64,000 nucleotides of DNA from Candidatus Woesearchaeota archaeon. GTDB lineage: Archaea; Nanobdellota; Nanobdellia; SCGC-AAA011-G17; JACPIM01. The notes beneath the pieces are model-generated. The model saw nothing but the letters and a program-made list of their open reading frames with translations, did no database searches and was not told the origin of the DNA. The position numbers and the translations under genes were made by a program. Below are positions 1 to 10,477 of this stretch, piece after piece. Every line of letters starts with the position of its first letter. Within the stretch, counting starts at the first letter, position 1. The stretch lies in the NCBI GenBank assembly GCA_043817645.1, contig JBDRGP010000029.1:58226-122225 (forward strand), written 5' to 3'.

Positions 1-342
1 AACCTCAAAACCCTTACCTCCAAGATACCTACAAGTCTCTAAAATACAAGGATGTTCAACTTTTGTTGTTATAATATGCCCCTTTCCTTTTGAAAGAGCC
101 AATCCTTTCAAGACAGTATTATTTGACTCAGAACCGCAACTAGTAAAAACAATTTCCTCTGGCTTTGCACCAATAGCCTTAGCAACAATCTTTCTTGAAC
201 TATCTAGAGCCTCTTTTGCCTCTGATCCAAAATCATGAACAGAAGAAGGATTACCATACTTTTCAGTAAGATAAACATCCATTACTTTAGCAACTTCAGG
301 ATCTACCTTAGTTGTTGCTCCATTATCCAAATAAACTTTCAT
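1..342 (-). CDS. iscS: Cysteine desulfurase (IscS/NifS family), N-terminal part; the 3' end runs off the window edge
   Basis: The reverse-strand translation starts MKVYLDNGATTKVDPEVAKVMDVYLTEKYGNPSSVHDFGSEAKEALDSSRKIVAKAIGA...FTSCGSESNN, the classic class-V aminotransferase/NifS N-terminus. Its ATG overlaps the stop of the upstream regulator ORF (ATGA at 339-342). Confidence 0.85.
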   Translation of the reverse strand, partial: MKVYLDNGATTKVDPEVAKVMDVYLTEKYGNPSSVHDFGSEAKEALDSSRKIVAKAIGAKPEEIVFTSCGSESNNTVLKGLALSKGKGHIITTKVEHPCILETCRYLGGKGFEV

Positions 343-728
343 TTCCTATCCTCGCAACAATTAACCAATACCGGCCTACATTGCTCAGTCACATTACAGA
401 ACTGTCTATGAATCCTACATAGCTCTCCTGAATCCTTTACAACCCTCAACAATCTCTGAATTTCTCTCAAAACTGAAAACTTATCATCTATATTTGAAGC
501 AGATTTGGAAATTTCTTCCAAAATGGACTTATTAAACTTTACTTTTGCCCCTCTTTTTTTACTGATATATTGACTCACAGCAGCCCTATCTATCTGCAGT
601 AATTCAGCTATCCTGCTCTGTTTTAACCCACCAGATTTCATATAAACAGCCAAATACCTCCTGATGGTAGGTATTACATAAAATACTTCAATCTCCTGAG
701 GCAATAAAAATCCATTTTTGTTAACCAT
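339..728 (-). CDS. HTH transcriptional regulator (sigma-70 region-4 / DUF134-like helix-turn-helix) with a C-terminal Cys-rich tail; translationally coupled to iscS
   Basis: 129 aa. The HTH segment is GLKQSRIAELLQIDRAAVSQYISKKRG. The C-terminus is CRIHRQFCNVTEQCRPVLVNCC, with 5 Cys. The 4-nt overlap is with the iscS start. Confidence 0.55.
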   Translation of the reverse strand: MVNKNGFLLPQEIEVFYVIPTIRRYLAVYMKSGGLKQSRIAELLQIDRAAVSQYISKKRGAKVKFNKSILEEISKSASNIDDKFSVLREIQRLLRVVKDSGELCRIHRQFCNVTEQCRPVLVNCCEDRK

Positions 729-3381: not shown

Positions 3382-3792
3382 TTAGACACGACGTCCACGC
3401 CTAAAGTGCTTTTTTCTGCAACCATCAGTAGGAGTAGCAGTAACATCCTCAATAACACCAATTCTTAAACCCATTCTAGATAAAGCTCTTATAGCGGCTT
3501 GTGCACCAGGACCAGGATTATTAGGCCCATTATGCCCGCCAGGAGCTCTAATTTTAATATGAATAGCATTCACACCTTTCTCAAGAGCAGCCTCTCCTGC
3601 AATTTTAGCAGCATTTGTTGCAGCAGTAGGAGAACTTTCTAATCTATGTGCTTTAACAACCATGCCGCCAGAGGCTTTCGCTATTGTTTCAGAACCTGTA
3701 ATATCCGTAATATGGATTATACTATTATTATAACTGGCATAGATATGACAAACTCCCCATCTCATTGGTCTTTGCTCTTTTTGAAATACCAT
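3382..3792 (-). CDS. rps11: 30S ribosomal protein S11 (uS11)
   Basis: [110 protein letters not shown] is the canonical uS11. Confidence 0.9.
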
Positions 3793-5414: not shown

Positions 5415-6263
5415 ATGTCTCAGGACGTAATATTTTACTATGTAAAGGTATTTCCAAAACTAAAGAAATTCCTAAAAAACAGGGAAATAGCCACCATTAT
5501 GAAGCTAAAAGACACTGAAATAGTAAGAAGAGGCTCAAATCACCCTCCTTTATACATAAAAGACCTAAAAAAAATCAACAAAAAGTTCCAGGAACTAAGA
5601 AAAGGCAACATCCACCTAAAAGACATAGAATCCCAATTGTCCAATATCCAAATAAAAATTTGGCAATATTTCGTTCCTAGAAAACTCATAGAGCTACATT
5701 ACGCAGTCAATCAAGAACACCCAAATAAACCCTTAGAAAGAGTATATTTTGACATAGACAGAAAAGACATTCCAGCAGAAAAAGCACAATTAGTAGCCCT
5801 AAAATTAATAGAAACCATAAAAAAAGATAAAACCTTCAGATTAGAGTATAAAATATTTCCTATGTGGACAGGAAACTCCTTCCATATATACCTTTTATTA
5901 AAAAAGAAAATTCCTCATTCTTTTTATGAAAAAAACTTCCATGTAGATATAAACCACCAAAAAGACTCCTTTACTGGAAGATGGGCTCTTAAAATAAACA
6001 AAGAACTAAAAAACATTAAAGTAGTAGCAGGCCATCAGAAAAAACAAGGCTATATCAACATAGATCCTTCACAATCACCATCAGGTAAAATTTCTCGTTC
6101 TCCCCTTTCCTTATACATAAAAAATTATTCTTCAATAAGGGGTATTGCCCTCCCCTTAACCATAGAAGACTTAAAAAATAAAAACCTAATAAAAGAATTA
6201 AGGGGTTACACTATAGAAAAAGTTATAAAAAATCTCAATAAACTAGCTAAAAAATTACCATGA
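5415..6263 (+). CDS. Archaeo-eukaryotic primase (AEP) catalytic-subunit-like protein (PriS-like)
   Basis: 282 aa. It has a motif I DxD (RVYFDIDRKD), a motif II SGxxxH-like (MWTGNSFHIY) about 40 residues later, and a motif III hD (YINIDPS). The spacing is consistent with PriS. Confidence 0.5.
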   Translation: MSQDVIFYYVKVFPKLKKFLKNREIATIMKLKDTEIVRRGSNHPPLYIKDLKKINKKFQELRKGNIHLKDIESQLSNIQIKIWQYFVPRKLIELHYAVNQEHPNKPLERVYFDIDRKDIPAEKAQLVALKLIETIKKDKTFRLEYKIFPMWTGNSFHIYLLLKKKIPHSFYEKNFHVDINHQKDSFTGRWALKINKELKNIKVVAGHQKKQGYINIDPSQSPSGKISRSPLSLYIKNYSSIRGIALPLTIEDLKNKNLIKELRGYTIEKVIKNLNKLAKKLP

Positions 6264-9989: not shown

Positions 9990-10333
9990 TAAAACATACT
10001 CCCAAAATCTTCTTTCTCATTTGTATTCAAAGGTATGTTCTCTTTACTTCTCACAAACCTCTCTAAAAGTAACAAACCATGTGCAATCTTCTTATTTTGT
10101 TCCAAAAGATCGGTTAATTTTCTAGCTAAAGGTTCTTTGATCTCGCCTTTTTCAATATGTTCTGCAGCTTTTTGAAAAATTTCTACCAAACCATCAACTT
10201 TTTTTGTCAAAATATTCATAGAAATTAACAAATCTGCAGTTTTTTTCTGCAATTCTATATTATTTTTTACTAAATGATCTATAATATCTTGTTTAGTAAT
10301 ACGTGAAGAAGATTTTCTTACCAAAAATTTCAC
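9989..10333 (-). CDS. Hypothetical helical protein, first gene of the coupled operon
   Basis: 114 aa with predicted coiled-coil/helical character. Confidence 0.45.
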   Translation of the reverse strand: MKFLVRKSSSRITKQDIIDHLVKNNIELQKKTADLLISMNILTKKVDGLVEIFQKAAEHIEKGEIKEPLARKLTDLLEQNKKIAHGLLLLERFVRSKENIPLNTNEKEDFGSMF

Positions 10334-10477
10334 CTCTTAATACAAAATTTTATAATATACATACAAAAAACTACTATAAAAAGCTTTTTATTGCATATTT
10401 AGCACAAAAATCCACTAAAAAAACCAAAAATTGCAAAAATCACAACTTTTTTAAACACTTAATCCTCAGTTTTACCT

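Follow-up and report, generated by a model that had tools for sequence, protein, structure and literature searches.

The window analysed here is a stretch of 64,000 nucleotides (64 kb) from a member of the Woesearchaeota, a lineage of DPANN archaea, and its first few hundred positions hold a small regulator gene that is followed, on the minus strand, by the beginning of a cysteine desulfurase gene. The features to which we refer below are as follows.

1-342, minus: 5' part (114 codons) of a NifS/IscS-type cysteine desulfurase gene (Pfam), which runs off the window
339-342, minus: ATGA stop/start overlap in the sequence (regulator TGA at 341-339, desulfurase ATG at 342-340)
339-728, minus: regulator gene, an open reading frame of 129 aa
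349-353, minus: GAGGA, a putative Shine-Dalgarno-like element in the sequence, 6 nt before the desulfurase ATG and within the last codons of the regulator
357-419, minus: putative metal or Fe-S ligand motif C104-x2-H107-x9-C117-x6-C124, from conservation
564-620, minus: helix-turn-helix (HTH), residues 37-55, from AF2 helices 37-44 and 48-55
721-734, no strand assigned: predicted operator site 2, a perfect palindrome, TTAACCATAGTTAA, covering the start codon (726-728) and the predicted transcription start
737-750, no strand assigned: predicted operator site 1, a palindrome with one mismatch, GTAACGATAGTTAA, downstream of the TATA box and ahead of the predicted transcription start
753-760, minus: TATA-box-like TTTATAAA in the sequence, the putative archaeal TATA element of the operon promoter
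782-1795, minus: rtcA (RNA 3'-phosphate cyclase RtcA), ending 53 bp upstream of the regulator
2232-2921, minus: DNA-alkylation-repair protein gene
3382-3792, minus: ribosomal protein S11 gene
5415-6263, plus: LigD Prim-Pol-like protein gene

The genes on the far side of the regulator are ordinary housekeeping and repair genes, and we saw no link to the regulator among them. An identical protein is deposited at NCBI under the name 'MAG: transcriptional regulator [Candidatus Woesearchaeota archaeon]', and it is also encoded on a longer contig (L001, gene 10001-10390). The protein is laid out as a conserved N-terminal segment (PQEIEVFY-IP), an Xre-type HTH, a helical middle domain and a Cys3His tail. 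Its AF2 model is all-helical with a pLDDT of 87.5, and confidence falls in the final 20 residues to 71 and then 59. In an alignment of 62 sequences, the word-indexed close homologues of the regulator, the HTH is the most conserved region and Q11, E12, P20, S52, Q53, Y54, K58, R59 and C104 are invariant. More broadly, the family comprises 1759 clusters (50% identity) at E ≤ 1e-3, including 737 at E ≤ 1e-10. One relative of 226 aa (P0076) appears to be a tandem duplication of the entire regulator domain.

The desulfurase fragment in the window (114 aa) matches Pfam Aminotran_5 with E = 2.9e-25, as a class-V aminotransferase and group-I cysteine desulfurase. Its full-length counterpart on the longer contig scores 510 bits on the NifS model TIGR03402, slightly below the cut-off, and passes the cut-off of the IscS-subfamily model PRK02948. 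The gene calls for the regulator and the desulfurase on that contig (10001-10390 and 10387-11544) likewise overlap by 4 nt, and the third gene of the operon, which starts with MYSKKIMEMFQDPKF...GREGNFRCGD, matches NifU/IscU scaffolds.

Linkage to iron-sulfur cluster assembly genes

A scan of one genome per species identified 411 sites that encode a relative of the regulator, and we surveyed the neighbourhoods of the best 80 of these 411 loci, in species-representative genomes, by tblastn with Suf, NifS and IscU references. Almost all of these 80 loci belong to Woese-, Nano-, Aenigmat-, Iain- or Nanohaloarchaeota; some of the metagenome-assembled genomes are labelled 'uncultured Methanosarcinales', which is a record label only. 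In 78 of the 80, the next gene downstream of the regulator is a same-strand Fe-S biogenesis gene, so that the linkage spans several DPANN phyla and three operon types. A stricter classification of the first downstream gene returned a NifS-type desulfurase at 35 loci, sufB at 26 and sufC at 14, and left five unclassified by the script, three of which still have a desulfurase that overlaps the regulator or is fused to it. The rest of a sufBDSUC or sufCBDSU set, or iscU, stands behind this first gene. For example, a relative with 61% identity (P0003) overlaps and heads a complete sufB-sufD-sufS-sufU-sufC-FeS_assembly_P-HesB operon. At the remaining two loci, L057 and L069, the regulator gene stands alone.

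The coupling is also physically tight, with the regulator overlapping the next Fe-S gene at 34 loci and separated from it by 0-30 nt at 23 (together 57 of 75). In two sequences the regulator and a NifS-type desulfurase are fused in frame (L046 6001-7524, 507 aa; P0104, 506 aa), and since the two fusions are 85% identical over their full length, the fusion is conserved and does not reflect an assembly error. A close relative (L025) has two separate genes with a 10-nt overlap. Inserted genes also occur: four loci (L036, L037, L058 and L068) carry an extra gene between regulator and desulfurase, roughly at positions +360 to +1170 nt relative to the PQEIEV codon, which by sequence motifs only is alpha/beta-hydrolase-like (257-260 aa), and another (L084) carries in this position a motif-based pair of hemerythrin-like (139 aa) and cupin-like (103 aa) genes.

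Distant relatives with a CxxC-type tail (P0053, P0054 and P0061) share the same architecture and have no adjoining Fe-S genes; their neighbours are LemA and the NrdR-RNR-thioredoxin genes, or an amidohydrolase. At L086 4540-4932, L089 5001-5396 and L088 5001-5384, where distant members have a CxxC...C tail, the gene either stands between LemA and a small open reading frame, behind which come NrdR, ribonucleotide reductase and thioredoxin, or adjoins an amidohydrolase gene. This group has the look of a paralogous subfamily whose regulon differs and is possibly redox-related.

A predicted palindromic operator and its covariation with the recognition helix

Alignment of the regions upstream of the regulator revealed a 14-bp palindrome, TTAAC-N4-GTTAA (often TTAACTATAGTTAA), which either follows a TTTATA(A/T)A box immediately or, as ttaactATGGTTAAc, overlaps the start codon. 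The box precedes the operator in most of the aligned regions. In the window, both predicted sites lie at the promoter end of the regulator gene, whose intergenic region towards the rtcA stop at 782 spans 53 bp. Archaeal transcription starts about 26 nt downstream of the centre of the TATA box, and from this spacing the transcript should begin within a few nucleotides of the regulator ATG.

To count occurrences we searched the 200 nt that precede the conserved PQEIEV codon with a strict pattern, TT[AC]AC-N4-GT[GT]AA. It is present in the upstream regions of 64 of 81 loci, as compared with an average of 0.09 loci, and never more than 3, in first-order Markov simulations of composition-matched upstream regions. 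The 15.5 kb of upstream sequence contains 70 such sites and the remaining 751 kb contains 4, an enrichment of roughly 850-fold. Many of the 17 loci that lack a strict site have a version with one or two mismatches. Relative to the TATA octamer, 22 operators begin 1-9 nt downstream and 12 begin 17-19 nt downstream; the regular expression for the octamer was strict and recognised it for 38 of the 70 sites, so these distance classes are indicative only. The window promoter has one operator of each class, and tandem operators 14-16 bp apart also occur at four other loci (L020, L035, L050 and L078).

Site 2 is the sole perfect match to the operator in the 64-kb window. Nine matches were found in total, where 5.8 are expected, and the seven one-mismatch matches that lie outside the promoter pair were rejected as further operators since they fall within chance. 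Over the ±6-kb flanks of the surveyed loci, only one convincing extra site was found. This is a perfect operator, TTAACTATTGTTAA, at L011 2015-2028, about 4 kb upstream of the regulator. It is flanked by a divergently oriented peroxiredoxin gene (1411-1974, minus) on one side and by a Rieske-type gene (2030-2335, plus) on the other, which gives a hint that in some genomes oxidative-stress genes may belong to the regulon.

Several variants of the site were observed. The loci L025 and L046 have operators with a 3-bp spacer (TTAACAACGTTAA and TTAACAATGTTAA), and upstream of the regulator the former also carries a tandem of two copies of TTAACGATAGCTTTA. The arrangement over the start codon is found in the window and at about 20 loci (e.g. 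L026-L028, L033, L040, L048, L052, L059, L061, L062, L066, L067, L071 and L077). Where the operator overlaps the start codon, the same bases are both operator and coding sequence, and the Met-Val-Asn N-terminus is thus dictated by the DNA site.

A second line of evidence ties this palindrome to the regulator itself. The recognition helix comprises R48-I55 (RAAVSQYI) and is followed by the conserved K58 and R59. In several lineages the operator takes the symmetric form TTCAC-N4-GTGAA, and residues 49 and 50, which form the N-terminus of the recognition helix and are Ala-Ala in the window protein, covary with position 3 of the half-site. TTCAC half-sites accompany all eight regulators with Ser-Thr at these residues and 10 of 67 others (Fisher p = 2.6e-6, uncorrected for phylogeny). 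By Ser49 alone, the proportions are 13 of 19 versus 5 of 56 (p = 1e-6, likewise uncorrected). The Ser-Thr sequences are mutually 43-58% identical, which argues that the signal does not come from one recent clade. Moreover, both half-sites change symmetrically and in step with the recognition helix, as predicted for a dimeric HTH protein that reads a palindrome.

Based on the gene linkage, the conservation and position of the operator, and the covariation between helix and operator, these sequence comparisons indicate that the regulator is very probably an operator-binding autoregulator of Fe-S genes. The initial annotation had noted the ATGA overlap between the regulator stop and the iscS start, which we find both in the window and on the longer contig. 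It had taken the recurrence of the iscS linkage in other genomes as a test, and the linkage holds and widens to suf operons. It had also suggested looking for an operator palindrome upstream of position 728; such a palindrome exists, overlaps the start codon and is conserved at the 64 loci described above.

The HTH, the Cys3His tail and its candidate cofactor

The regulator lies below the cut-off of every family in Pfam and NCBIfam, both of which were scanned. Its closest Pfam relationship is to HTH_3, at residues 29-61 (18.4 bits against a cut-off of 23), a model matched by 47 of 62 family members with a best E of 3.8e-6; Sigma70_r4_2 is matched by 10 of the 62. Weak NCBIfam matches to the Tfx family (E about 0.01) are confined to the HTH. 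A family profile searched against all PDB sequences retrieved only lambda-repressor-like, Cro and HipB HTH domains, with a best E of 5.5e-4. The HTH is thus Xre/Cro-like by sequence, and in the structural model it is a generic three-helix HTH. At best, to judge from these matches, the protein joins an Xre-type HTH of divergent sequence to a new C-terminal domain of about 70 residues, helical and bearing the Cys3His motif, for which no solved or modelled counterpart was found.

Membership of the Rrf2, SufR and DUF134 families was considered and rejected for lack of sequence matches. At E ≤ 1 the window protein matches neither Rrf2 (PF02082) nor DUF134 (PF02001), and in the NCBIfam scan at the same threshold it matches no SufR model (COG2345 / TIGR02702). 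Similarly, neither PF02082 nor PF02001 is among the 25 families listed of the 31 that the 62 members match at E ≤ 0.01. The description of the HTH as DUF134-like in the initial annotation is therefore replaced by Xre/Cro HTH_3 as the closest relationship by sequence, while its statement that the protein is unrelated in fold to IscR fits the finding that neither Rrf2 nor SufR was matched.

The tail, ELCRIHRQFCNVTEQCRPVLVNCCEDRK, contains five cysteines (C104, C111, C117, C124 and C125) in 26 residues, and residues 1-103 contain none. At the cysteine frequency of the window, 1.5%, the probability of at least five cysteines in 26 residues is about 4e-5. The 62-sequence alignment separates these residues into two groups: C104 is invariant, C117 and C124 are at least 90% conserved and H107 is present in most sequences, while C111 and C125 are peculiar to the window protein. 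Across 257 full-length relatives, 225 have the pattern C-x2-H-x(3-16)-C-x(1-8)-C and a further arrangement, in which the first pair is C-x2-C (CxxC...C...C), occurs in 19, so that about 95% keep C-x2-H/C...C...C. The commonest spacing is H-x9-C-x2-C (72 relatives), followed by H-x9-C-x6-C, the type of the window protein (61), and H-x10-C-x2-C (27). All five cysteines had initially been put forward as a cofactor-sensing group whose spacing should recur in orthologs. Their presence stands, and a motif is indeed kept in orthologs; as judged from the alignments, however, the conserved unit is a four-ligand Cys3His (or Cys4) site, formed by C104, C117 and C124 together with H107, and not a set of five cysteines. 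Since the distant relatives outside Fe-S operons keep the motif, the site is family-wide and not specific to Fe-S operons.

From its conservation, the Cys3His site is likely to bind a metal cofactor. Whether this cofactor is an Fe-S cluster that serves as the signal is a closer call, and we put its chances at even or slightly below. Cluster occupancy would be the most economical signal because the regulator controls, and is sometimes fused to, the machinery that makes clusters.

The alternative that best survives these data retains the operator-binding autorepressor and takes the Cys3His site as structural zinc that stabilises a C-terminal or dimerisation domain, with the protein acting in simple autoregulation or responding to a signal other than Fe-S. 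The HTH and operator evidence would fit this reading equally well. CxxH...CxxC and CxxC...CxxC are classic zinc-knuckle pairs, the common C-x2-H-x9-C-x2-C pattern among them, and paralogues unconnected to Fe-S operons retain the motif. Yet the second ligand pair is separated by anything from x1 to x8, a range that a rigid zinc knuckle would not usually show, and IscR provides a precedent for a ligand set of three cysteines and one histidine in a protein whose gene leads an Fe-S operon. It also seems less likely that the very small genomes of DPANN archaea would keep a dedicated regulator that receives no signal. On balance, we regard structural zinc as possible and somewhat unlikely.

A more doubtful possibility is a thiol switch resembling those of the CstR/SqrR or RsrA type, in which the cysteines, with or without zinc, would react with desulfurase persulfide or with oxidants, and formation of a di- or polysulfide would release the repressor. 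The regulator does adjoin, and is sometimes fused to, a persulfide-generating enzyme, and the extra operator at L011 lies between peroxiredoxin and Rieske-type genes. However, a conserved histidine that is replaced solely by cysteine points towards metal ligation over a pure thiol switch, and half of the loci have suf operons, in which SufS is encoded several genes downstream. We therefore consider such a switch improbable.

More improbable still is that the protein is not chiefly a transcription factor and instead acts as an accessory or carrier in Fe-S assembly, docking on the desulfurase or scaffold and retaining only an HTH-like fold. Conserved in-frame fusions and tight translational coupling to Fe-S genes would suit this role, but it leaves unexplained both the conserved palindrome on the regulator's own promoter and the covariation of recognition helix and half-site, and no other part of the protein is as well conserved as the HTH. 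Finally, a generic Xre-type regulator or antitoxin that merely happens to precede a desulfurase, a reading to which the frequency of ATGA overlaps in compact genomes and the weakness of the HTH_3 matches might lend themselves, is refuted by the finding that 78 of 80 genomes show the Fe-S linkage, which extends over several DPANN phyla and three types of operon, and we give it practically no credence.

A proposed Fe-S homeostatic loop and its relation to known regulators

We hypothesize that the regulator is an autorepressor of the Fe-S assembly operon whose Cys3His site senses Fe-S cluster status, a reading that we hold to be somewhat probable. The protein would bind TTAAC-N4-GTTAA, presumably as a dimer, through its Xre/Cro-type HTH. 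Given that site 1 is placed between the TATA box and the predicted transcription start and site 2 on the start itself, occupancy of the two would be expected to block recruitment of RNA polymerase, which is the usual mode of repression in archaea from such positions. In this scheme, C104, H107, C117 and C124 would ligate an Fe-S cluster made by the machinery under the control of the regulator, and the cluster-loaded form would repress. A shortage or oxidation of clusters would leave the protein in its apo form, which would dissociate from the operator and allow induction of the operon. We assign repression to the holo form because only that direction yields negative feedback, as it does for IscR on isc and for SufR on suf. 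Moreover, the conserved fusions of the regulator with NifS suggest that the sensing cluster may come directly from the desulfurase/scaffold pair that the regulator controls. Overall, the proposed circuit would be a homeostatic loop like those of IscR and SufR, operated by an unrelated protein family. The core idea of a metal- or cluster-sensing regulator that acts on its own Fe-S operon, with which the analysis began, is in this way partly supported, and is favoured as far as computation reaches.

The regulation of Fe-S biogenesis is well understood in bacteria, where IscR, SufR and RisR serve as examples. DPANN archaea have few regulators and cannot be cultured alone, and comparative genomics is consequently the main route to their regulatory logic. 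In the literature searched, which left most subscription-journal papers outside, we found no description of a dedicated archaeal regulator of Fe-S biogenesis, and nothing relevant on COG2522, on Fe-S regulators of DPANN or Woesearchaeota, or on Xre proteins together with suf. A 2026 review of the sensors covers bacterial ones only. It is conceivable, and we advance it tentatively, that the protein is the founder of an undescribed family of archaeal Fe-S-sensing factors, combining an Xre-type HTH with a new Cys3His domain, and the first dedicated regulator of Fe-S homeostasis in Archaea.

The system offers a candidate that is easily tested: the protein is 129 aa long, its predicted operator of 14 bp is well defined, four residues are candidate ligands, and a fusion to the desulfurase occurs naturally. 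If the Cys3His site binds a cluster, evolution would have solved the same homeostatic problem independently in this family, with a new fold for an Fe-S sensor; if it binds zinc, a new pair of operator and repressor for archaeal Fe-S operons would still result. More generally, the near-invariant operator would permit prediction of the regulon across DPANN genomes.

Among known systems, the best sequence matches of the HTH are to Cro/C1 (Xre) repressors such as phage Cro and the C-proteins of restriction-modification systems, which are small dimeric repressors that act on palindromes of about 14 bp in their own promoters. In contrast to these, the regulator has the additional PQEIEVFY-IP segment at its N-terminus and the helical Cys3His domain at its C-terminus. 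DUF134 / UPF0251 proteins are likewise small archaeal and bacterial HTH proteins, of a sigma-r4-like three-helix type, but PF02001 is not matched by the window protein at E ≤ 1.

In function, the closer parallels are to SufR and IscR. SufR is an autoregulated suf repressor that represses in its [4Fe-4S] form (PMC6034842; bioRxiv 10.64898/2025.12.26.696629), and IscR forms a homeostatic loop with the machinery that it controls, acting as a cluster-loaded repressor of isc (PMC13066941). Like SufR of cyanobacteria and actinobacteria, the regulator is encoded at the heads of suf operons, but SufR is a bacterial protein of an unrelated sequence family, has roughly twice the size and uses four cysteine ligands with long spacers. 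The resemblance to IscR extends to the position as first gene of an Fe-S biogenesis operon, to a predicted palindromic operator on the regulator's own promoter, and to three cysteines plus one histidine, which are the cluster ligands in IscR and conserved candidate ligands here. The cluster ligands of E. coli IscR are C92, C98, C104 and H107. Their order, C-x5-C-x5-C-x2-H, differs from the C-x2-H-x9-C-x2/6-C of the regulator, as do the operator sequences, and IscR is bacterial and has the winged-helix Rrf2 fold, to which the regulator has no match. The regulator is thus probably an undescribed archaeal counterpart of bacterial IscR and SufR, and in it a familiar regulatory logic is realised by a new protein family, with a new operator and in a new domain of life.
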